Shown: positions 1 to 11,826 of the stretch, piece by piece | Layout of the letters: each line of letters begins with the position of its first letter | Numbering within the stretch: position 1 is the first letter of the stretch | Virus record (IMG/VR): IMGVR_UViG_2917403263_000006 | Location: 1 to 11,826 of that record | Strand: one strand, 5' to 3' | Length of the DNA: 11,826 nt | Origin: a virus | Lineage: Duplodnaviria; Heunggongvirae; Uroviricota; Caudoviricetes | Notes under the pieces: generated by a model | What the model was told of the DNA's origin: nothing | The model's input: only the letters and a program-made list of their open reading frames with translations | Databases searched by the model: none | Translations under genes and position numbers: made by a program

Positions 1-173
1 ATGGGGATTATGCCGAATAATGTTGGGGGGTTTGGGGATGTGAAAAGCGAGTTTAGTGTTTTTGAGGAATGAATTATTGCCATTGCAAAAAAGGATGATG
101 GAACTAAATAAATGGTTAGGCCATGAAATTTTGAAATTTGAGACATATATACTTAGCTAATTGCCATTTTTTA

Positions 174-211
174 AAAGCCACGCCAATAATTAATATTAGA
201 ACCGTGGCTTT
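174..211 (-). terminator. Hairpin (9-bp perfect stem AAAGCCACG/CGTGGCTTT, 20-nt loop) just downstream of the PIN-like gene stop; possible weak or bidirectional terminator
   Basis: Inverted repeat seen directly at 174-182 and 203-211, flanked by a T/A-rich tract (TTTTTTAAA on one side, TTTAATTT on the other). The loop is large and the U-tract is short, so strength is doubtful. Confidence 0.3.
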
Positions 212-229
212 AATTTAGAGCATTAGATA

Positions 230-1315
230 CTAACGTTTCAACCAAAGGTCATCTACAGAAAACGAATCGAATTCATTCTCAGATGGAGAATAAATAAAGC
301 TCACTGTAAAATACGGTCTAACCAAAATCTCTAAAGTCACAACGTCACCATCACCATGAGTAAATGGGAATGCCGAATCTAAATCGCTTTTATTTTCAAT
401 ATAATCCAAATAAGGAATATCCACTTCAATAAAAACCCGTCTCAAATTAAAAGAATAGGCAATGTAATATTTATCCGCATCAATTGAAGTGATGCCTTCA
501 ATATAGCCATCCTCGAAATCTTCGATGACATCAACTCTAACATCCAAAACATTCGAAACTCTAGACTCAAAAATATTATTTTCAAGGTATTGACTAAGCA
601 TCATGTGATTAAAACTTGATAAATAATCGATACACTCACCTTCTAGAAACTCCTCGAAATAAGGCTCACTTCTTGCATGATCAAAAGCATGGATACTCTT
701 ATCAATAGATGATGTAACGAAGTCAAATAGCTTCCGATATGGAGTTATTTTTTGTGTTATGCCTAACTCTTCAATATCTCTTAGAAGATCATCATTAAAC
801 GTTGCAGGACCTTTACTGTTGGTAAAAAAGTCTGAGCTATTCTCAGTAATAAATACAAAATCATCATTACCCCCTGATGATTTGATATATTGAAGAAAAG
901 ATAACCAGATCAACGTATCACGGTATCCTTTTTCTTGTTCTGAGAAAGGTTTTATCTTTTCAAGGGCCCTACCAACCACCTTAGCATGTGGAATATCGTT
1001 ATAATCTATTAAAATTAAATTATCAACTTCCTTATTTAATATTTCTTTCAAATCATATTGTTCAATACCTAAGTTTTCAATTTTAAAATCTATTGGATTC
1101 TGATTAAGCTTTTTAATTTTACTAATAATGGAACGCATTTCATTTAATTGATTTTTGAGCTCTCTATTCCTGATATTGTTAGTCTCCTCAATTACTAAAT
1201 TTGATAATAACAAGTCGTTACATTCATTATTCAAAAAATGGAAAAGAAGTTTAAAATTAGCATTTTTAGCAAACCAATTATTGTAAAATATATTTGTATC
1301 CAAAAAAACTTTCAT
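230..1315 (-). CDS. Hypothetical cargo protein with N-terminal PIN-like nuclease domain and about 190-aa C-terminal extension of unknown function
   Basis: 361-codon ORF, ATG at 1315-1313, TAG at 232-230. N-terminus MKVFLDTNIF matches the first acidic motif of PIN domains (hhhDTNhh), with further acidic positions (VIEE, ILIDYND, FVFITENSSDF) at PIN-like spacing. Strongly AT-rich relative to the phage backbone. A TATAAT -10 hexamer lies on the - strand at 1357-1352. Confidence 0.6.
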   Translation of the reverse strand: MKVFLDTNIFYNNWFAKNANFKLLFHFLNNECNDLLLSNLVIEETNNIRNRELKNQLNEMRSIISKIKKLNQNPIDFKIENLGIEQYDLKEILNKEVDNLILIDYNDIPHAKVVGRALEKIKPFSEQEKGYRDTLIWLSFLQYIKSSGGNDDFVFITENSSDFFTNSKGPATFNDDLLRDIEELGITQKITPYRKLFDFVTSSIDKSIHAFDHARSEPYFEEFLEGECIDYLSSFNHMMLSQYLENNIFESRVSNVLDVRVDVIEDFEDGYIEGITSIDADKYYIAYSFNLRRVFIEVDIPYLDYIENKSDLDSAFPFTHGDGDVVTLEILVRPYFTVSFIYSPSENEFDSFSVDDLWLKR

Positions 1316-1371
1316 CTGTCTTTTCCAGTGATGTAGTTAATAACATAGGTAATTATAAATTGAATTGTAGG

Positions 1372-1396
1372 CCGGATCCACTGATAGTGGATCCGG
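1372..1396. repeat. Perfect 25-bp palindrome CCGGATCCACT-GAT-AGTGGATCCGG (two GGATCC cores) upstream of the PIN-like gene; candidate operator or terminator hairpin
   Basis: Read directly: 11-bp arms are exact reverse complements around a 3-nt centre. It sits about 15-20 bp upstream of the - strand TATAAT at 1357-1352, where a -35 element would lie. Confidence 0.5.
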
Positions 1397-1838
1397 TTTA
1401 AAAGATTGCATTTATGGCAATGTCAAGTATAAAAACAACCACAACATAATGATTGTATATCCAAAGGCCGTCAGTAAATCATAGCAATTATCACTTACAG
1501 GGGATGTGCGATTTTAATCGTTCAGCCGCGCGCTCATATCCCCGCCACGCCTGCCCGCTTTATGTAGCGGTTTTCATGCAGGTGCATGATCTACGCAAAA
1601 TCCCACCAGTTCTGGCGGGCCTTAGCAAAAACGATCCGCAAACGATCATGCGATCTCATGCGGCATAGTCATGCACTTACGGGGGGAACTGAAATCCAGT
1701 AACCGAATGATCGCTTGAAAAACGAAACATACGTACTTACAAAGCACAAAGCCTGCTTTGAGCGAAGCGGACGTTAATAATGTTGCTGACCATCCCTAGT
1801 ACTTCTCATAATATAGCCCTATGTTAATCAACAAAATA

Positions 1839-2669
1839 TTAATTTGTCCCATCACTAAAGAATTTGATTGCGTCAGTTAGTACATAGTCAATGAAAATTT
1901 TTACGTGGAAGACCTGAAAAACGCTATTTTCTGAGTTTTGAATGAAATCTACAGCTATATCTTTTAGGTTGATCAACCAGTTATATTCTTCAATCAGTCT
2001 AGTTCTGGCATCCGCATCAGAATAACGACTCCGTAAGCTAAATGCCAGTTTCCTCATGATAACTGGATCAAGTTTCCTATAGCTTTCAATGAAAACATCA
2101 GCAGGAACTAAGTGTAAAAAAGGTACGTCATGAAGATTTAACTGTCTATTATTAGAATGACTCAATTCAGATAACAACGATGATTTTCCCCTTTGTAACT
2201 CATCTCTGAACTGCAATGCAAATTCCGAAATTGATTCATCAAACCGTTTCTTCCTTGCTATTTTAATATGTTCAATAATGAGCTTAAAGTCATCACTATC
2301 CCTGTCAAGAAAACTTAAACTACGCCATCCCCTTAATTCGTTATAATGCGTTTGCGCATATTCCTTATGTACATCTTCAGCTCTCAGTCTATTATAATAA
2401 TTATTTATATTCTGTTTTGTCTCATTTATGAGATCATGAACATCATCTGTTGTTAGACCTTCTTTCGCCATTTCCAGCAAAATACTCGCTGTCATCAGGA
2501 GTTCACCTAAGGTAGTGATCTTACCTGAAAATAGGTTATCCTTAGCAATAGCGTACTGCTCATAAAGCATAGTTTCATTTAGTTCTCTATAGTTCCACAA
2601 ACACCTCCATGCTGGTGAATCGCTGCTTCTAAAAAAAACGCGTAACATCCAACTGAGCAAGAAGATCAC
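1839..2669 (-). CDS. Hypothetical protein, predicted largely alpha-helical; either a separate partner gene of the upstream NTPase or its C-terminal continuation across a frame break
   Basis: 276-codon ORF (first codon GTG at 2669; internal ATGs at 2648 and 2570 have weak RBS), TAA at 1841-1839. It overlaps the NTPase ORF end by 41 nt, across an A8 run at 2631-2638. Same AT-rich composition as the NTPase ORF. No recognisable catalytic motif. Confidence 0.5.
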   Translation of the reverse strand: MIFLLSWMLRVFFRSSDSPAWRCLWNYRELNETMLYEQYAIAKDNLFSGKITTLGELLMTASILLEMAKEGLTTDDVHDLINETKQNINNYYNRLRAEDVHKEYAQTHYNELRGWRSLSFLDRDSDDFKLIIEHIKIARKKRFDESISEFALQFRDELQRGKSSLLSELSHSNNRQLNLHDVPFLHLVPADVFIESYRKLDPVIMRKLAFSLRSRYSDADARTRLIEEYNWLINLKDIAVDFIQNSENSVFQVFHVKIFIDYVLTDAIKFFSDGTN

Positions 2670-3732
2670 CCGTTACCTTTCCATCACAGATTAGTTCTCT
2701 CCAAGACGCGCCATCCAGTAACTTCTCGGTTAATACAGGAGACGAATATTTCTCGACAATCATGTCATACTTACTTTTGACGCGTTCTTTACCCAAAAAC
2801 ATACCATAATTAACATTGCCGATTGAATTGAAATCCTCGTAGCTAAGATTCCCTCCCCGGTACTCCATCGAAAAAATTAACAATTGATGAAAAAACACCC
2901 TTATAAATTCATCGTTACTTAAATATTTATCTCCCAAAAGGGAAATAATTCGTTGTACATCGAGAAAGAACTGCCTCAAGTGTCTTAGATTATTATAATT
3001 CGCTGACACATAGAGGTCCTCTATTGTCTGCATATCTTCTTTAAATATATTAGCAACATGCAAACTACTAATTACGCTCAAGAAAATCTTACAAGCACTA
3101 TGTAAATCTGACGTTACTTCAAATGTTTTACCTACTAGCTTTTCTTTTGTTCTCATGTATTCATTGCGATATTTCTCATCATCATTATTTATTCGCTTTT
3201 CTCTATTGATTATTTCATCTTCATTGGCAACCAAGATCGCTTTGTATCCGTTTACTTCCACAAAGTGATTTATATATCCAAATAAGATTGGTAAATCTAC
3301 ACCAGCTCTCTCGACATCATCAAAGACCAGCACAAAACCATCTGGTTTTCTAGTAAAGTCGCTAAGATTAATGGTGGGAACATTGCTATTGATATCTACG
3401 TCAGATTTATTATCGCCATTAAGATCGATCTTGAAAGTAGCCTTAAGCGTATTTTTTAGTACATTTGCACCAAAGATAAGGGCTTTGTTTGATAGGACAG
3501 GATGCAATTGACGATAGAACTCATCTTCAATCTGCTCAATAGAGTTGACGCCATACAAGCTCACTTTTAGAAATTTGAACTCTGAATGTTTCTGCTTATA
3601 TTCTTCAAGAACTCGTTCAATGAACCAAGTTTTACCTGATCCCCAAGCACCTTTAAGCATAATGGCGTATTGAGGTTCAGTTTTAAGGCTAAGGTAATAT
3701 TCTATATAGTCTTTGATGTACGTATTGTGCAT
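2629..3732 (-). CDS. P-loop NTPase, KAP-like (Walker A GAWGSGKT near the N-terminus; Walker B-like VLVFDDVER)
   Basis: ORF with ATG at 3732-3730 (the track ORF starts at an upstream TTG at 3783), TAG at 2631-2629. LKGAWGSGKTWFI fits the KAP-family G-x-W-G-S-G-K-S/T P-loop signature; VLVFDDVERAG fits the KAP hhhhDD-x-(D/E)R Walker B pattern. No obvious transmembrane segment. AT-rich. Candidate -10 TATAAT on the - strand at 3847-3842. Confidence 0.65.
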   Translation of the reverse strand: MHNTYIKDYIEYYLSLKTEPQYAIMLKGAWGSGKTWFIERVLEEYKQKHSEFKFLKVSLYGVNSIEQIEDEFYRQLHPVLSNKALIFGANVLKNTLKATFKIDLNGDNKSDVDINSNVPTINLSDFTRKPDGFVLVFDDVERAGVDLPILFGYINHFVEVNGYKAILVANEDEIINREKRINNDDEKYRNEYMRTKEKLVGKTFEVTSDLHSACKIFLSVISSLHVANIFKEDMQTIEDLYVSANYNNLRHLRQFFLDVQRIISLLGDKYLSNDEFIRVFFHQLLIFSMEYRGGNLSYEDFNSIGNVNYGMFLGKERVKSKYDMIVEKYSSPVLTEKLLDGASWRELICDGKVTGDLLAQLDVTRFF

Positions 3733-4053
3733 TTTTAGTCCATTTTTATAAAATACATAAACATAGATGGTAAGTAGAGCCAAAGGCCAACTATGGAAAA
3801 TTCAATCGGTAGTGTACATTGTAAGGTTATTATTGGTAAATATTATAGGAATACCCATAATCTTACAAAATTCAGATTATCCGTTGCAAATTAGTCTGCC
3901 ATTCGTTAATTGACGAAAGATAGCAGAAGAAATGTTCGCTTCTGGCACAAAGCGGACGATCACTTATAAAAATGACCGCCCACCTTACGCCTTATTTCAC
4001 TCATTGCCCAAACTAGCCCCCATCAGAATGAATCCTCCTGGGGGCAACATTTC

Positions 4054-4287
4054 TTAATGCTGCCAGCTGTCGTCTTCCCACACCTTCTGCATAATTTTCA
4101 TCACTTGTTTTCTTTCTTCGTCCAGTTGCAGTCCGGTAAGTTCCACACCGTGAGAGCTACCTTTGCGGATACGAATTACCGTTTTGGGATACAGGGGGCG
4201 CAGATTGCGGTAAAGCTCGGATTCAAGGGCGTCCAGGATAGACTGGCTAATCTTCTGCTCTTTATCGATCATTATTTCAATGCGCAT
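4054..4287 (-). CDS. DinI-family protein; likely the C-terminal DinI-like domain or short product of a Tum-type SOS-inducible antirepressor
   Basis: 77-codon ORF, ATG at 4287-4285 preceded by GGTGA with 5-nt spacer, TAA at 4056-4054. MRIEIMIDKEQ...KIMQKVWEDDSW resembles E. coli DinI (MRIEVTIAK...ILQETWES). The frame is open upstream into the 4298-4486 ORF region. Confidence 0.7.
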   Translation of the reverse strand: MRIEIMIDKEQKISQSILDALESELYRNLRPLYPKTVIRIRKGSSHGVELTGLQLDEERKQVMKIMQKVWEDDSWQH

Positions 4288-4297
4288 AAAAGTCACC

Positions 4298-4486
4298 TCA
4301 ACTGATGACATCCATTGAGCGGTTGTATTCGTGGGTTCTGATTTTTGCCATGAGTTCATCAGTCAATTCAGAAACCCACTGCAAAGCCAGCCCCTTCTCT
4401 TCATCACTACACTCACTAGCCGCTACAAGCTTAAGAAAAAAATCAATGCGCTGGAGCTTCAAAGACTCCAAAAAATAGTCCTGCAT
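4298..4486 (-). CDS. Small ORF (62 codons), probably the N-terminal part of a tum-like antirepressor gene, separated from the DinI-like ORF by a frame break
   Basis: ATG at 4486-4484 preceded by GGAGG (4-nt spacer), TGA at 4300-4298. LexA box 40 bp upstream. Removing one base from the T5 run at 4342-4346 fuses it in frame to the DinI-like ORF, giving about 143 aa, close to the about 146 aa I recall for phage 186 Tum. Confidence 0.5.
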   Translation of the reverse strand: MQDYFLESLKLQRIDFFLKLVAASECSDEEKGLALQWVSELTDELMAKIRTHEYNRSMDVIS

Positions 4487-4526
4487 CTTTCCTCCTATAA
4501 CACCAAAGAAATATTGTATACATAAC

Positions 4527-4546
4527 CACTGTTTATATTTACAGTA
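4527..4546. promoter_or_regulatory. LexA operator (SOS box) CACTGTTTATATTTACAGTA upstream of the tum-like operon
   Basis: CTGT-N8-ACAG core at 4529-4544 with AT-rich spacer; 17 of 20 matches to the E. coli consensus TACTGTATATATATACAGTA. It overlaps -10-like hexamers (TATACT, TACAAT on the - strand) about 40-60 bp upstream of the 4486 start. Phage 186 tum is known to be LexA-controlled. Confidence 0.65.
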
Positions 4547-4559
4547 TATAATAATCTTA

Positions 4560-4591
4560 CTGATGTAAAACGTTTTTTTTACGTTCATCAG
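4560..4591 (-). terminator. Imperfect hairpin (CTGATG...CATCAG outer stem, AACG/CGTT inner stem, T8 loop) between gene A stop and the SOS promoter; possible early-operon terminator
   Basis: Inverted repeat read directly. The U-tract after the stem on the - strand is poor (UAAGAUUAUUA), so termination efficiency is uncertain. Confidence 0.3.
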
Positions 4592-4639
4592 CCTGATATG
4601 CTTGGTATTATTAAGAGCACGAATTGTTAACCCGCGTAA

Positions 4640-6764
4640 TTAATACAGGTTCCGCCACTTATCATCTTCCTGCAAACGCTGGTTCCGATAGAAGATACGC
4701 AGGCCTGCTCCTGACGGAATACTGCCGCCGCGAAGGAGTAAATCGACCTCTTTCTCGCTACCATCAAATCCTCTGGACTTCAGTTCATAGGCGAGCTGCT
4801 GTCGCTGATGGTCTGTAATTCGCTGTTTGTAGTCTTTACGCCGTTTCGGTTTCACCAGGCGTAACCTTGCTGCCAGTTCCCGGCGCTCTTTTTTGCTCAT
4901 ACTGTGCAGGTAATCGTGCAACTCCTTGTCATCCATGCGGGTGATATCCGTTCTGGTATCCCCATCAGCTGATTTGTCTTTCCCTTGTTGGTTCAAATTT
5001 TCAGCAAGGGGACAGTTATTGCCACGAGTCCAAGGGGCGCAAGCGCCCTGGTCGGCTGCCGCCTCCTGAACGTCAACGGCCTTACGAACCATTTTCCACT
5101 TCACGGCATGAGTGCAGATCTTGCCCTCTGCAATGGGTGACCAGATGCCATAAATACGAATGCCGTGATCGCCATAGGCGGTCGGCTCTTCGTTGATTTC
5201 ATAAGCGGTTCTGATCAGGTGATATTTGCGGGGAACCAGTACGCCGCCCTGCTTCATGATGTAGGTGGCAAAACAACCAGCATCAGCAGCAGCCAGGATG
5301 GCATCAAGGCACGGGTTATCCAGTACCGGCGCACCTGCTTTTTTGTCCCCCTGTTGCCTTGCCGCCTGACCAGCCAGCAATCGCAGTTCACGGTAAGCCT
5401 GACGCCCCGGAATGCCAAAGAAGCGGAATTGCTGAACACGATGCAGAGACGCCCAGGCATTAACGTATTCAGCGTTATCACGCAGGGATTTACCCGTTTC
5501 CTTGCTGATCTCGCCAGCCAGACCACGCCCGTCAATGTTCTTACTGATGTATTTCGCGATGTAGCTTGTTGGCGTACCTTTACGCGGGTTAATCAACTCA
5601 GACTTAAAGCGCGGCCCAGTGTTATTGCCCAGCTCCTCGCGGTCTTCACGGATGGCAAACTTACGCAGTAATGCAGTGATGGCGCGGCGGTTCTTTTTTG
5701 TGCATAAAACACAACAGGTGCCAGTGAACTGTACCGTCATGATGCGGCTCAGCCACCCGCACGCCATACCAGCGCAATCCGGCTTTGTGCATCGCCTTAC
5801 GAAATGCAGCAAACATGCCGACCAGATAATCACTGCTTTGTCTTACCGTCGCATTTGTCCAGGTCGGGTTGGGCCTGCCGTTATTTAGCGTGGAATGGAA
5901 ACGTGACGGACAGGTGATGGTGTAGAAAACGGCGCAGTCACCGCGCATTTCCGCGATAAGCTCCAGACCTTTAACACAGGCCATCATCTCATTGCGGCGA
6001 TGCGCAGGGTTGCTGCTGCTGGCGTTTACCACATCCTCCATGTCCAGCGTGTCGCCGTCTTCGTTCACCAGTTCATGAGAACGGAAAAACTCCAGCGACT
6101 TACGGCGCTGCTCACGTTTATGCATCACGGCTTCATAGCTGACATAGGGAGATGCTTTTTTGCTGACCAGGCAAACAGCACGCAACTGCTCTTCCCGCCA
6201 TTCGCAACGCATCTTCCATAATTTCCGGTACCACCAGTCGGCGCACAACATACGTGCCAGCGAACCCGGAATGAGTTCATAGGGCACGGGTTTACGGCGG
6301 TTTCTTTTCCGGCGGAGTTGCTCAAACGCAGGCGGTATGACATCCAGTCGCAGGGTTTCTGCTGCCACCTTTTCCCATGTCTTGCGGATTTCTTCTGGCT
6401 TAACATCATCGGTGGCGTACAAATCACCACAAGCGGCATCAAGACACATGCTCATATGCGCAGCGACAAGAGTAGACAGGCGTTTCACCTGATCCTGACT
6501 CATTTCAGGCAAGTTCAGCAGGCCGTCCAGCCCTTCATGGCTTGCCATAAAGCGAAAAGAAGTGGATAGCTGACTCTCGCGTACATGCTCCAGTCGTTCC
6601 AGACATGGCTTAATCGTCTCACGCAAATAGCGGGAATAAGCCTTTGGCCTGCCCAGGCTGCTGAAGTATTCAATACGTTGCATCAGCGGCTTGCTGATAT
6701 GGGAAGGCTGGGCGTTAACGTCCGCCAGTATGACCATGTCCGGATTAAAAACGCTGCTGCTCAT
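4640..6764 (-). CDS. A: Replication initiation endonuclease gpA (P2/186 gene A, HUH rolling-circle nickase); reading frame is broken at the T6/A6 run 5694-5699 in the sequence as given
   Basis: Two ORFs in frames offset by one (5661-6863 and 4640-5833). The upstream half ends with the HUH motif [15 protein letters not shown]. The downstream half carries the active-site pair [13 protein letters not shown] about 50 residues later, the same spacing as in P2 gpA. Deleting one A restores ...[14 protein letters not shown]... as one protein of about 700 aa. Start is uncertain (ATG 6764, 6737 or 6833; none has a strong RBS). Confidence 0.85.
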
Positions 6765-7056
6765 GCGCCAGCTTTGCCCGGCTAATGAGCTTATCCTGCT
6801 CCATTTCGCGTTGGACAGGATCACGGGATTCATTAAAGAAATAACGCTCCCAGACCTGATCACTCAGTGCCTCGAGGCGCAGTTGTTCCTGCTCGTTATC
6901 GGCAGCGTACAGAGTGATCAGGTTTGAAAGCGCAGAAACCGGCGCAACTTCCGCCGGGTCCAGATAAGGGTTAATAGCCTTTTTCGGGCTGTTCCATGAG
7001 AATGCTGCGGCGGCCTCGTTAAAGCCGCTGCAGTTGTTCATATCAGCATGGCTCAT
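6745..7056 (-). CDS. Hypothetical phage early protein (103 aa)
   Basis: ORF whose ATG overlaps the dam stop in an ATGA stop-start overlap (7053-7056), suggesting translational coupling. No motif recognised. Confidence 0.5.
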
Positions 7057-7910
7057 GCACGCACTCCGTACACGGCAGAACTATCCACGCCACGCGAAGG
7101 ATCAAATCCCACCCAGCAGCGCACCCCAGAAACAGCGATGATTTCTGTTGCAGATTTACTCTCACCAGCTGCTACGCCGATGCTGCGTTTTGCCTTGATG
7201 TAGTGGTGAGTGAAATTGCGATACAGCGAACGGATCAGGGATGTGTCACTGTTAGAAACAATGACCGGATGTCCTTCTGATGACCGATGTTCAAGAACGG
7301 ATGCCAGGTGATACTGGTCATCTTCAGTGAAGCCGTCAGTGTGATAACCGGAAAACGTACCGTCATAAGGCGGATCGCAATACACCACATCCCCCACCTG
7401 CAGCATCGCCAGCGTTTCATCAAAGCTGGCGCAGATAAACGTTGCTCGCTGGGCTTTCTCTGCAAATGCGCGAATTTCTTTTTCAGGGAAATACGGATTT
7501 TTATAATTACCGTATGGAATGTTGAAATGCCCGCTCTTGTTATAACGACATAACCCACGGTAACCGTGACGATTGAGATACAGGAAATATACCGCTTTCA
7601 TGAAATCAGTAATTTCAGTTGAGTAATTAAACTCCTGTCTTATGTTGTAATAAGTCACCTCCCTGTTTGCGTCCTCAAATAAAGCTCTGGCACGAGATAT
7701 AAACACCTCACAATCAGCGGCAACCTTTTTATAGAGGTTGATTAAATCAGGATTAATATCCGCAACCAGATAGCAGGGATAATCCGTCTCCATCATCACA
7801 GCACAGGAACCCGCGAAAGGTTCAACCAGTCGCGGGCCAGCAGGAAGGTGTTTTTTCAGTTCGGACATAATGGCGGTTTTATTTCCCGCCCATTTCAGGA
7901 TGGTGCTCAT
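7053..7910 (-). CDS. dam: DNA adenine N6-methyltransferase (Dam-like)
   Basis: 286 codons from ATG 7910-7908 (GGAGGTG RBS; ATGA overlap with the upstream gene stop). N-terminus [11 protein letters not shown] with PFAGSCAV (AdoMet-binding FxGxG-like) and catalytic [12 protein letters not shown] (DPPY motif). The track ORF 7053-7970 includes a 20-codon 5-prime extension that is unlikely to be translated. Confidence 0.85.
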
Positions 7911-8134
7911 ACAGCACCTCCGTTGTAATGTTTGCCTTTCAGCTCTGCAATTTCCTGGCAGGTAATGCAAAGCTGCACACCCGGAATGGCACGGCGGCGT
8001 GCTGGCGGAATTGGCGCTTCACACTCAATGCAAAGCACGCGAGACACGCCCGGTGTTTTGGCACGGGCAGCACGGATATGGCGCTGGCGTTCTTCTTCAA
8101 CGCGCTGCTGTACGAGATCCATTGCATCAGCCAT
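7907..8134 (-). CDS. TraR/DksA-family C4 zinc-finger protein
   Basis: 75 aa, ATG 8134-8132 with AGGAG 8 nt upstream. Two CxxC pairs (CIECEAPIP ... CITCQ) in the DksA/TraR arrangement. P2-family early regions carry such a gene. Confidence 0.75.
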   Translation of the reverse strand: MADAMDLVQQRVEEERQRHIRAARAKTPGVSRVLCIECEAPIPPARRRAIPGVQLCITCQEIAELKGKHYNGGAV

Positions 8135-8367
8135 TAGTGGATCTCCTGCGCTTCGTTCTGGATTGCTTCAGCAGTCACACGCAGCAGTTCTGCTGCTTCC
8201 ACGTGGTTTAGCTGGCGGGATGTGATATGACACGCCAGGCTATCAAGGCGGGCAGCCATTGCCTCAGCCCTTGCCCGACGTTCTTCAAGACGGGCCTCTG
8301 TCAGTAAAAGATTAAGACCTGCATCATCCGGTCCGGTTTTAGTCGTGAGGGTTTCAATATTACGCAT
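8134..8367 (-). CDS. Hypothetical small phage early protein (77 aa; resembles the small Arg/Glu-rich helical proteins of P2-family early regions)
   Basis: ATG at 8367-8365 preceded by AGGAG (8-nt spacer); the track start at 8373 is a TTG. Its TAA stop overlaps the next ATG (TAATG). Confidence 0.55.
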   Translation of the reverse strand: MRNIETLTTKTGPDDAGLNLLLTEARLEERRARAEAMAARLDSLACHITSRQLNHVEAAELLRVTAEAIQNEAQEIH

Positions 8368-8434
8368 AATCAATTCTCCTGAATTTAGATAAAGGGATGC
8401 CCGGCGGGTTTACGCCATGAATTTCATTAATTGG

Positions 8435-8776
8435 TTAATTCGGCATGGTTAGCCGTCTGGGAAATAAGCTCACCACTGCACGAAAATGATTCATTGCTTT
8501 AATCAGCTCCCGCTTTTCGTCAGTGGTCAGCTCATTAATGCTGATGCTATGACGTTCAGCTGGAATTTTTGCCATAAAGAATATGGCAGCCAGTGCCCGT
8601 TTATTTTGTTCATTATTGATATCCCGTGGATCACGCATATCTTTAATAAACCGCTCAAGCTCTGACTCAATATTAAGGCCAAATACTTTCGCCCTTAACT
8701 CCGCAATATGATTAAGTCCATTCAGGCGTTCACCGGGGCTTAATGGAACAGTCGCCGCAGCGCCTTCAATAGCCAT
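8435..8776 (-). CDS. Hypothetical phage early protein (113 aa)
   Basis: ORF with ATG at 8776-8774 preceded by a G-rich RBS; overlaps the upstream small ORF by 37 nt in another frame. No motif recognised. Confidence 0.5.
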   Translation of the reverse strand: MAIEGAAATVPLSPGERLNGLNHIAELRAKVFGLNIESELERFIKDMRDPRDINNEQNKRALAAIFFMAKIPAERHSISINELTTDEKRELIKAMNHFRAVVSLFPRRLTMPN

Positions 8777-8940
8777 TTGTTCCCCCGTTTTTTCGTTGAT
8801 AGTTCTGCCAGCAATTCATCTTGTGAATGGCATGGATGCCAGCGTTTACCATCCTCACCCATGATCCAGCCGTGACCGTAGTGCATTGCCGGGCTTTGTT
8901 TTACCAGCAGCGATGCAAATGATGGTTCTTTCGTCAGCAT
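8740..8940 (-). CDS. Hypothetical small protein (66 aa) immediately after cII, in the position of the 186 fil-like gene
   Basis: ATG at 8940-8938 preceded by GAGGTG (4-nt spacer), which overlaps the cII stop. Contains HGW...HPCH. Function unknown. Confidence 0.4.
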   Translation of the reverse strand: MLTKEPSFASLLVKQSPAMHYGHGWIMGEDGKRWHPCHSQDELLAELSTKKRGNKWLLKALRRLFH

Positions 8941-8947
8941 AAGCACC

Positions 8948-9457
8948 TCACAGCAAACCGAATGAAGCACCGAGGCCAGTCACGGTATCAACTGCACTCG
9001 CCATCGCAGGATTAGCCTGTAAACGGGCCTGCAATGAAACAGCCGCCAGCGCCATCAGTCGTGTTACAGAGTTAATGCTGCTGATAGCATCACGACGACC
9101 TGCACTGGTTTTTACATCGCCAGATACCGCACCTGCAGCAACACGCCCGATCTCTGCGGTTGCACTCATGACGTAATGCGGCAGTTTCTCTTTTGCCACT
9201 TCATTAATCGGTACACATGGCAGGCAGTGAATCTGTGCCAGAAAGCCATCTACCAGCGTTGAATCTTCAGTCAGATCGGTAAGCAACCAGATTTCTGGTG
9301 CGGTTAATAAATGAGGTTGAGCTGGGTTCAGCTTGTTCCGCAGAATCTGTACATTCATGCCTGCACGTTCTGCCAGTTGCACTAGGTTGTGGCGCAGTGC
9401 GAATGCACGACAGGCTTCATCAAAATGTGGATGTTTGGAAACTTGGTAATCAAACAT
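8948..9457 (-). CDS. cII: CII-like lysogeny establishment activator (phage 186 CII family)
   Basis: 169 codons from ATG 9457-9455 (the track ORF starts at an upstream TTG). [24 protein letters not shown]...[25 protein letters not shown] closely matches the 186 CII sequence as I recall it, and the length equals 186 CII (169 aa). Confidence 0.7.
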
Positions 9458-9521
9458 AGTTTTCAACTCCGAACTTATCGCAAAATCGAACTCAGCGTCT
9501 TATTGCGAAAATAGACGTCTA

Positions 9522-9725
9522 TTAAGCAGACAAAGCATCAACAGTCAGAGCAGCTAGGTTAATCATTACCTTTTCACGTTTTTTGTCTTTACGAAGACGA
9601 TGACGAGGTAGTCGGCCATCAGCCAACATGTCGTTAATCGTATCAATAGAAAGGCCAGTTAGTTCGCTATAACGTTCGATTGTGACATGTGGTGTATTCA
9701 GAGTAATTGAAATGTTAGGTGTCAT
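9522..9725 (-). CDS. Apl/Cox-type small HTH excisionase and repressor of the lysogenic promoter
   Basis: 67-aa ORF, first gene of the leftward operon, divergent from cI. Helix-turn-helix-like segment VTIERYSELTGLSIDTINDMLADGRLP. Position matches 186 apl / P2 cox. Confidence 0.6.
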   Translation of the reverse strand: MTPNISITLNTPHVTIERYSELTGLSIDTINDMLADGRLPRHRLRKDKKREKVMINLAALTVDALSA

Positions 9726-9814
9726 AAGGCAACATTCCTTCTAGATATGGCTTGTGGCGAGCCGTTGTTTGTCGTGATTAGTAGTGAAGGCTCCAAAAGA
9801 ACTCTTCTGGTTCA

Positions 9815-9843
9815 ACTTTAAGATCGCTTTTGGAATCTGTCAA
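9815..9843 (-). promoter_or_regulatory. pR-like early lytic promoter (-35 TTGACA, 17-bp spacer, -10 TAAAGT) firing toward apl
   Basis: On the - strand: TTGACA (9843-9838), 17-nt spacer, TAAAGT (9820-9815); perfect -35, 4 of 6 at -10. It lies inside the 5-prime extension of the long cI ORF (9784-9870), which argues that extension is not coding. Confidence 0.45.
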
Positions 9844-9870
9844 CGATTTTTGGATTTCTCTGGAGGACTC

Positions 9871-10440
9871 GTGGATTTCAATAGCGGTGGTAAGAAGGCC
9901 ATAGAACGTTTGGTTGAAGCATATGGGTTTGGTACCCGTCAGGCTCTCTGTGATCATTTAGGTGTTTCTAAGAGCACCATGGCAACACGCTATATGCGTG
10001 ATATTTTTCCGGCAGATTGGGTAATCCAGTGCGCACTAGAAACAGGCATCTCACTTCATTGGCTTACGACCGGGCATGGTTCAAAGCAAGCATCAGCAAA
10101 AACAAATGCTATAGAAGTAGTAAAATATTTATTGTCTGATGGAGACTTGCAGGAAGACGGGGTTTATATTTTTGATAAGGGATTTCTACCCTCTACGTTT
10201 AAAAATCCTTTTGTAGTCACAGTTAATAATTCTGAATTTATTTGTGATAAAGAATTTGATGATATACGTGATGGTAAATGGGTAATAAGTATTGATGGCG
10301 AAATAACAATCCGCGACATTACTCGTTTACCCGGTGGGAGAATCTTCGTTGAAGGTGGAAACAGAGCCTTCGAGTGTAAGATAGAAGATGTTGAAATAAT
10401 TGGAAAAATTATAAGTTTAACAGTTAAATATGTTAGATAA
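9871..10440 (+). CDS. cI: CI-type immunity repressor (phage 186 CI family)
   Basis: N-terminal segment IERLVEAYGFGTRQALCDHLGVSKSTMATRYMRD...CALETGISLHWLTTG matches the 186 CI DNA-binding domain (LDRICEAYGF...HCALETGANLQWLLTG as I recall it). Start placed at GTG 9871 (GGAGG 4 nt upstream), giving 189 aa against 192 for 186 CI; the track ORF starts at GTG 9784. Confidence 0.75.
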   Translation: MDFNSGGKKAIERLVEAYGFGTRQALCDHLGVSKSTMATRYMRDIFPADWVIQCALETGISLHWLTTGHGSKQASAKTNAIEVVKYLLSDGDLQEDGVYIFDKGFLPSTFKNPFVVTVNNSEFICDKEFDDIRDGKWVISIDGEITIRDITRLPGGRIFVEGGNRAFECKIEDVEIIGKIISLTVKYVR

Positions 10441-10833
10441 TACCGGGGGAAACTATGCTTGGTAAGGTATTTTTTGTGGTTTTATCATGCTCTTTGTTAT
10501 TAAACCCACTAACTACCTATGCTAAAAATTAATCCTTGTTCTGGGAAAAAGGGAGGTGTCTCTCACTGTACCTCCGATGGAAAATTTGTATGCAATGATG
10601 GGGCTATTAGTAAATCCAAAAAAATCTGTACTAAATACTCACGATAAATTTTGCTCTGATATCTGCGCCTAATATAACAATGAGGCGCAGGCTAACCACA
10701 AAAGTTACATACTCACATAACAAAAAATAGCCAACTTCATTATGGCTTCAGTGAGATGTATGGTCGCGGGATCTCATACATTGACACTGGTTATATATAC
10801 AGTAAAAATGCTCTCCACTGGAGGGCATTTTTT

Positions 10834-11826
10834 ATGGCAGTACGAAAACTCACCACAGGAAAATGGCTTTGCGAATGTTACCCCGCCGGACGTAGTGGAC
10901 GTCGTGTGCGTAAACAATTCGCCACCAAAGGCGAAGCTCTGGCTTTTGAGCGTCACACGATGGAAGAAACCGAAGCAAAGCCCTGGCTGGGTGAATCAGT
11001 GGATCGTCGAACACTGAAAGACGTGGTTGAGCTATGGTTCAAACTACATGGTAAATCTCTGACTGCTGGGCAGCATGTCTATGACAAATTGCTGCTGATG
11101 GTTGACGCTCTGGGCAATCCCCTTGCAACCGATCTCACATCTAAAATGTTTGCCCATTATCGAGATAAACGACTGACAGGTGAGATCTACTTCAGCGAGA
11201 AATGGAAGAAAGGAGCCAGCCCGGTCACCATTAACCTGGAGCAAAGCTATCTAAGTAGTGTTTTTAGCGAACTATCCCGCCTGGGCGAATGGTCGTATCC
11301 AAACCCACTGGAGAACATGCGAAAATTCACCATCGCAGAAAAAGAGATGGCATGGCTTACCCATGAGCAGATTGTTGAACTGCTGGCTGATTGCAAACGT
11401 CAGGACCCAATTCTGGCACTGGTAGTCAAGATATGCTTAAGCACAGGCGCACGCTGGCGAGAAGCAATAAACCTTACCCGATCACAGGTGACCAAATACC
11501 GAATTACCTTTGTAAGAACGAAGGGGAAGAAAAACAGAAGCATCCCTATCAGTAAAGAGCTTTACGAAGAGATCATGGCGCTTGATGGGTTCAATTTCTT
11601 CACAGACTGCTATTTTCAATTTTTATCCGTGATGGAAAAAAACGTCTATCGTGCTCCCTCGCGGTCAACTGACACACGTTCTGCGCCATACGTTTGCGGC
11701 GCACTTCATGATGTCGGGTGGAAATATCCTTGCTTTGCAAAAAATCCTCGGACATCACGATATAAAAATGACAATGCGTTACGCACATCTGGCACCGGAT
11801 CACCTGGAAACTGCATTACGGTTTAA
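10834..11826 (+). CDS. int: Tyrosine integrase (P2/186 family), 3-prime end beyond the window; reading frame breaks at the A7 run 11636-11642 in the sequence as given
   Basis: ATG at 10834 (MAVRKLTTGKWLCECYPAGRSGRRVRKQFATKGEALAFE is a typical P2/186-type integrase N-terminus). The conserved catalytic C-terminus VLPRGQLTHVLRHTFAAHFMMSGGNILALQKILGHHDIKMTMRYAHLAPDHLE is present only in the +1 frame after 11642. Deleting one A gives ...DCYFQFLSVMEKTSIVLPRGQLTH..., the same length as the 186 Int segment between TDAY and LPKGQ. Confidence 0.85.
   Translation: MAVRKLTTGKWLCECYPAGRSGRRVRKQFATKGEALAFERHTMEETEAKPWLGESVDRRTLKDVVELWFKLHGKSLTAGQHVYDKLLLMVDALGNPLATDLTSKMFAHYRDKRLTGEIYFSEKWKKGASPVTINLEQSYLSSVFSELSRLGEWSYPNPLENMRKFTIAEKEMAWLTHEQIVELLADCKRQDPILALVVKICLSTGARWREAINLTRSQVTKYRITFVRTKGKKNRSIPISKELYEEIMALDGFNFFTDCYFQFLSVMEKNVYRAPSRSTDTRSAPYVCGALHDVGWKYPCFAKNPRTSRYKNDNALRTSGTGSPGNCITV

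Follow-up and report, generated by a model that had tools for sequence, protein, structure and literature searches.

The integrase gene (int) of a 186/P2-like prophage carries, in the deposited sequence of PDID01000005.1, a run of seven adenines (A7) that throws the C-terminal part of its catalytic domain out of frame, and this frameshift, in a gene of a familiar type, is almost certainly an artefact of sequencing. The window analyzed here is a stretch of 11,826 nucleotides that matches exactly bases 1–11826 of this contig (assembly GCA_004745145.1), and the contig was compared with other assemblies over bases 1–20440. PDID00000000 corresponds to the Escherichia cryptic clade II strain E3659, which was sequenced by Ion Torrent using single-end reads of 35–400 nt at 40× coverage, deposited as SRX3260350 under BioProject PRJNA412557, and assembled with MIRA and SPAdes, optical maps being the only other data type mentioned besides this single platform (PMC6639607). 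We are highly confident that A7 results from a base-calling or assembly error and that the real genome has A6 and encodes an intact Int of 343 residues.

The integrase and its reading frames

The run at window positions 11636–11642 reads directly as AAAAAAA. The int start codon, which is preceded by a ribosome-binding site, coincides with the annotated start of the integrase coding sequence in E. coli D7, ML35 and KE47 (Table 1). From this start, the gene reads in frame up to ...FQFLSVMEK and then, past the A7 run, as RAPSRSTDTRS..., this start frame giving ...FQFLSVMEKNVYRAPSRSTDTRS... downstream of the run. The +1 frame past the run reads ...KKTSIVLPRGQLTHVLRHTFAAHFMMSGGNILALQKILGHHDIKMTMRYAHLAPDHLETALRF, which is the tyrosine-recombinase segment quoted in an earlier, sequence-only reading of this DNA, and continues with TSIVLPRGQLTHVLRHTFAAHFMMSGGNILALQKILGHHDIKMTMRYAHLAPDHLETALRF. 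That reading had described an open reading frame running from 10756 to the window end and turning into nonsense after the run. The wrong-frame nonsense is as it described, whereas the frame does not stay open, as it closes by coincidence with a TAA in the last codon of the window, and 10756 is only a mechanical start of the open reading frame and not the real start of int.

The A7 run divides the catalytic residues into two groups, with R207 and K230 encoded before it and H281, R284, H307 and the nucleophile Y316 encoded after it, and the frame as written keeps only R207 and K230 among them. Neither of the two products read as written (330 residues from 10834 and 356 residues from 10756) has a record in the gene-position index, probably since int is annotated as a pseudogene in the source. 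When one A is deleted and the frame is followed to base 11866 of the contig, where the true int stop lies 40 nt past the window end, a 343-residue protein is obtained that is identical to Int of GCA_005781135.1. The earlier proposal that one base fewer restores the integrase is thus borne out.

The corrected protein matches the Pfam profiles Int_N (PF24624) with 111.8 bits and Phage_integrase (PF00589) with 78.5 bits, with the domain complete and gathering cut-offs of 27 and 27.1, respectively, whereas the protein as written covers only positions 2–78 of the 172 positions of the Phage_integrase profile, with 38.1 bits. Residues 169–334 align with the HP1 integrase structure 1aih (E 8.5e-58), and a residue-by-residue alignment places R207, K230, H281, R284, H307 and Y316 in conserved blocks that are in register with it. 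Matches were also obtained to the integrase structures 5c6k and 5dor, which we take to be phage P2 Int. The corrected Int shares 99.1% identity with its counterpart in Escherichia phage vB_EcoM-813R9 and 39% with P2 Int. Judged from its domains, its catalytic residues and its position at the prophage end, all of which fit, the gene is a P2/186/HP1-type tyrosine integrase. It shares with these integrases the two domains, the R/K/HxxR/H/Y register and a position downstream of cI, and differs from them in that the gene deposited here is frameshifted at codon 268.

The A run is shorter by one base in every relative in which we could read it. When E. coli D7 and Klebsiella phage 4LV2017 are aligned with the present sequence, a single gap appears, both having A6 where it has A7, and A6 is found at 127/127 related loci covering the site, as it was in an earlier comparison of four loci. 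A 90-nt query centered on the run matched a segment in 1092 complete E. coli genomes, none of which holds the exact A7 90-mer, the best matches (98.9% over 89 bases) being A6. No IMG/VR viral contig or JGI metagenome contig contains the exact A7 27-mer, and the three matches to an A6-or-A7 pattern in species-representative genome contigs are all A6, the source assembly itself lying outside these viral, metagenome and species-representative collections. At least 120 viral contigs contain the corresponding A6 26-mer. As far as these sequence searches reach, A7 is private to the present sequence among the collections searched.

Table 1. Features of the int region and single-base insertions in PDID01000005.1 (contig numbering, of which the window is bases 1–11826)
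Feature	Position	Strand	Remarks
GGAGGG ribosome-binding site	10820..10825	+	8 nt upstream of int ATG 10834; sequence read
int, 186/P2-like prophage	10834..11826 within window	+	start as annotated CDS starts in relatives
In-frame part of int	10834..11635	+	Int_N and first half of catalytic domain; R207 (codon 11452), K230 (codon 11521)
A7 for A6, one extra A, very probably spurious	11636..11642	+	int, frameshift at codon 268; relatives A6; missing in 127/127 relatives
C-terminal catalytic segment, +1 frame	11643..11826	+	H281 (11675), R284 (11684), H307 (11753), Y316 (11780)
TAA closing the wrong-frame reading	11824..11826	+	last window codon, by coincidence
2-bp deletion (GA missing between bases)	42..43	+	portal gene 3' end, 43 nt from contig end
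G6 for G5, probably spurious insertion	1681..1686	.	intergenic; seen against relatives and clonal assemblies
A8 for A7 (+ strand)	2631..2638	-	splits KAP-family P-loop NTPase; seen against clonal assemblies
T8 for T7	4573..4580	.	intergenic, between gpA and a 62-aa ORF; seen against relatives and clonal assemblies
TT for T (+ strand)	5691..5692	-	second gpA frameshift; missing in 71/73 relatives
A5 for A4 (+ strand)	6747..6751	-	replication endonuclease gpA; missing in 75/76 relatives
AA for A	10531..10532	+	frameshifts ydcA-like ORF between cI and int; missing in 65/65 relatives
A6 for A5	14143		ybjJ, outside prophage; seen against clonal assemblies
AA for A	16435		mdfA, outside prophage; seen against clonal assemblies
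T inside A8 run	19600		intergenic, dacC/gstB, outside prophage; seen against clonal assemblies

Single-base insertions in the prophage and the chromosome

The whole window was compared first with four relatives and, in a second step, with 127, and nearly all of those that cover a given site lack the inserted base. Five single-base insertions in the window break four genes, namely those of the KAP NTPase, gpA (twice), the ydcA-like ORF and int, and two more are intergenic. Outside the prophage, insertions of the same type affect ybjJ, mdfA and the intergenic region between dacC and gstB (Table 1).

To this we add a comparison with three assemblies of the same clone, which represent either the same isolate as E3659 or merely clonal relatives: contig VATQ01000003.1 of GCA_005781135.1 and the Logan assemblies of SRR8835201 and SRR6148330. 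In all three, this prophage occupies an identical site and int has A6. PDID01000005.1 shows no mismatch to GCA_005781135.1 over 20,442 columns and none to the SRR8835201 and SRR6148330 assemblies over 15.4 kb each. PDID01000005.1 departs from GCA_005781135.1 and SRR8835201 solely by ten 1-bp insertions and by the 2-bp deletion near the contig end. The resequencing check proposed in the sequence-only reading has in effect been carried out by these independent assemblies, and its outcome favors A6.

In GCA_005781135.1, the KAP NTPase (630 residues), gpA (804), the ydcA-like ORF (63), Int (343), ybjJ (402) and mdfA (410) are all intact. In PDID01000005.1, gpA is split into ORFs of 103, 400 and 397 residues, the KAP NTPase is called as two proteins of 253 and 367 residues, and gpA, int, ybjJ and mdfA are without a product in the gene table.

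The insertions favor A/T and runs and are indifferent to coding status. The inserted base is A or T in nine out of ten cases, and seven of the ten extend runs of at least four bases, the remaining cases including those at 5691, 10531 and 16435, which duplicate a single base that is not in a run. The proportion of runs hit rises with their length, from 1/203 4-mers (0.5%) through 2/83 5-mers (2.4%) and 1/34 6-mers (2.9%) to 2/12 7-mers (17%). Seven of the ten insertions fall in coding sequence, approximately as expected from the coding density, with no sign of selection. The prophage has seven insertions in 11,826 bases and the chromosomal flank three in 8,614 bases, and over these 20.4 kb we found no enrichment of lesions in the prophage relative to the flanking host genes (binomial p = 0.53).

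The SRR6148330 assembly has peculiarities of its own, as it lacks one base at each of the PDID01000005.1 positions 6706 and 13581, which are present in the other three assemblies. These private 1-bp deletions split its gpA and ybjJ at sites that differ from those of the PDID insertions, and the run may come from an indel-prone platform, possibly within the same project as PDID.

We also considered a 1-bp deletion at 10448, which changes GGGAGG to GGGGG, as a further error and rejected it, as it is common to all four clonal assemblies. The Shine–Dalgarno-like GGGAGG in front of the ydcA-like ORF is present in 63/63 more distant relatives, where the sequence here has GGGGG (window positions 10443–10452). 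By this sequence comparison, the GGGGG variant genuinely belongs to the lineage, and the ydcA-like ORF may be translated less efficiently as a result.

A probable sequencing error and the alternative explanations

The insertions extend outside the prophage, are absent from three clonal assemblies and are accompanied by no substitutions, which together point to error and not to decay, and the run-length-dependent rate and the A/T bias correspond to the behavior of flow-based chemistry. Ion Torrent errors are mainly indels, with substitutions ten times rarer and with A and T flows being the most error-prone, and high-frequency indels recur at approximately one for each kb of reference, are not seen again in other runs and introduce frameshifts into assemblies (PMC3623719). 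The differences described here resemble these errors (Bragg et al. 2013, PMC3623719) in being 1-bp indels with virtually no substitutions, in preferring A and T, in their run-length effect, in their frequency of about 1 per 1–2 kb, in their absence from independent data and in frameshifting genes of the assembly. The PDID assembly combines the traits of such an artefact, namely a flow-based platform and 1-bp indels that are biased toward A/T and toward runs and ignore coding status.

One property departs from this pattern. In raw Ion Torrent reads, under-calls (deletions) dominate in longer homopolymers (PMC3623719), whereas all ten 1-bp changes observed here are insertions, including those in runs of 5–7 bases, against the read-level trend. 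The all-insertion direction would accordingly have to be explained by the base-caller version or by the assembler.

We propose that the flow-based chemistry would have miscalled run lengths and added stray bases, mostly A or T, and that the consensus would have retained approximately one insertion per 2 kb in the prophage and the chromosome alike. We infer that the reads are ambiguous or miscalled at the insertion sites. The real E3659 genome would then have A6 and, beside rcdA, a gene for a 343-residue Int with R207, K230, H281, R284, H307 and Y316, and the apparent breaks in gpA, the KAP NTPase and the ydcA-like gene would likewise be artefacts. The prophage would most likely be intact and able to excise.

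The sequence-only reading had instead concluded that int is non-functional and the prophage locked in, a claim that does not hold in view of the chromosomal insertions, the zero substitutions and the lack of all ten insertions in three clonal assemblies. This explanation states that a real +1 frameshift in E3659 kills int and that, together with the gpA lesions, it marks a decaying prophage unable to excise, which we regard as very unlikely. The deposited sequence does have A7 and its product as written is devoid of HxxR, His and Tyr, frameshifts also affect gpA and two other prophage genes, and slippage at homopolymers is a genuine mutational mechanism. As in defective (cryptic) prophages with an inactivated int, the as-written integrase is without its nucleophilic Tyr and gpA is broken. 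The earlier observation that other core genes carry the same kind of lesion is correct and was understated, but it fails as a sign of decay, as the chromosomal genes ybjJ and mdfA carry the same lesion type at a similar density. Unlike defective prophages, this one shows no accompanying decay, the prophage being free of nonsense codons, larger deletions and IS elements, while its lesions reach into the chromosome and are absent from the sister assemblies.

The spectrum of the changes weighs further against decay. Natural pseudogene decay in bacteria is substitution-rich and deletion-biased, whereas here we count zero substitutions against ten indels over 20 kb, with all ten 1-bp changes being insertions. 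Since substitutions outnumber indels several-fold in natural mutation, mismatch-repair mutators included, ten indels out of ten events would be very improbable. The three clonal assemblies are intact at the lesions, and the platform used for E3659 is Ion Torrent. Extrapolated from only 20 kb, one insertion per 2 kb would amount to approximately 2,400 insertions over 5.03 Mb, most of them in genes, which seems implausible for a culturable, free-living isolate grown overnight in LB. If A7 were true, it would in any case be a further instance of integrase inactivation, which is common and well understood.

It is slightly less probable still, and in our view scarcely credible, that A7 is genuinely present in E3659, at least in a subpopulation, as a private run-length variant of the conserved A6 tract just ahead of the Int catalytic residues, which could turn excision competence off and, by slipping back to A6, on again.

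An extremely unlikely explanation is that E3659 is a mismatch-repair-deficient mutator and that the ten insertions are real, genome-wide mutations. The loss of mismatch repair raises the frequency of 1-bp indels in runs, and the insertions are indeed spread over prophage and chromosome. Mismatch-repair-deficient spectra are dominated by transitions, yet there are no substitutions in 20.4 kb, and for this reason the mutator lineage was rejected. In addition, three insertions (5691, 10531 and 16435) lie outside runs and the one at 19600 is a T inside an A run, insertions occur with no 1-bp deletions, and this explanation too would imply approximately 2,400 frameshifts, which is implausible.

The chance is negligible that A7 is a functional slippery site at which transcriptional slippage or +1 ribosomal frameshifting tunes excision, or at which the run phase-varies: although A runs can support RNA-polymerase slippage and this one lies just upstream of the int catalytic residues, seven As are short for efficient slippage in E. 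coli, nine other insertions would be left unexplained, and A6 stands in one continuous frame at 127/127 loci, in the best-matching E. coli among the 1092 genomes and in at least 120 viral contigs, as it does in the sister assemblies of the clone. The out-of-frame arrangement is not conserved, so the defining sign of a programmed shift is missing, and programmed frameshifting or slippage was rejected on this ground.

A sequencing error is by far the most probable origin of A7, and single-base homopolymer frameshifts in otherwise perfect, conserved genes should direct suspicion to the sequencing platform first and not to prophage decay. Left as deposited, the apparent pseudogenes (int, gpA, KAP NTPase, ybjJ and mdfA) would mislead surveys of defective prophages, of excision competence and of defense genes in Escherichia cryptic clade II.

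The prophage neighborhood and its cargo

The integration site lies next to the host gene rcdA, with int at the prophage end, as in hundreds of E. coli prophages. The genes follow each other in the order apl-like ORF, cI, ydcA-like ORF, int and an 89-residue ORF, followed by the host genes rcdA, ybjJ and ybjI, and the order around int is identical in E. coli D7, ML35 and KE47. The cI repressor gene is intact (window positions 9871–10440), and the early region is typically 186-like, comprising the apl-like ORF, cI, CII, Fil, DUF5347, DUF2732, TraR/DksA, Dam, gpA and a DinI-like protein.

The first base of the window is also that of the source contig and falls within the 3' end of the portal gene (window positions 1–160), as placed from GCA_005781135.1. 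The prophage is therefore split across contigs in this draft, and its other attachment site lies outside this contig. Between the portal gene and the gene of the DinI-like protein lies a variable cargo region, which here contains a PIN_12-domain protein of 361 residues and the KAP-family P-loop NTPase (window positions 230–1315 and 1839–3783, both on the minus strand). The intact KAP NTPase of GCA_005781135.1 (630 residues) matches the PADLOC candidate defense family PDC-S49 with an E-value of 1e-156, and the PIN_12 protein has no PADLOC match. At the same spot, relatives carry a retron reverse transcriptase with a St85-family effector, a RES NAD+ phosphorylase, a Cap4 nuclease, or an AAA ATPase with a KAP NTPase, and the spot looks like the usual P2-like defense hotspot.

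The chromosomal flank (PDID01000005.1 12900–18900, from ybjJ to deoR) reaches only approximately 90% identity with its best match among 5,425 E. coli genomes, a value low enough to fit a cryptic clade, whereas the prophage early region is 94–98% identical to E. coli and Klebsiella prophages. By these identities the prophage has a far wider distribution than its host lineage, a pattern suggestive of recent horizontal transfer among Escherichia clades and Klebsiella.

Dozens of IMG/VR prophage contigs have the A6 26-mer exactly 236–261 nt from a contig end, so that their predicted prophage boundaries all fall at one constant distance beyond int, which probably reflects a shared att/host junction or a boundary-calling convention. 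An exact 26-mer match was also found in JAEWTL010000113.1 (3,057 bases), a contig assigned to a metagenome-assembled genome labelled 'Bacillota bacterium', where it belongs to an enterobacterial P2-like integrase segment; this contig is probably a binning contaminant.
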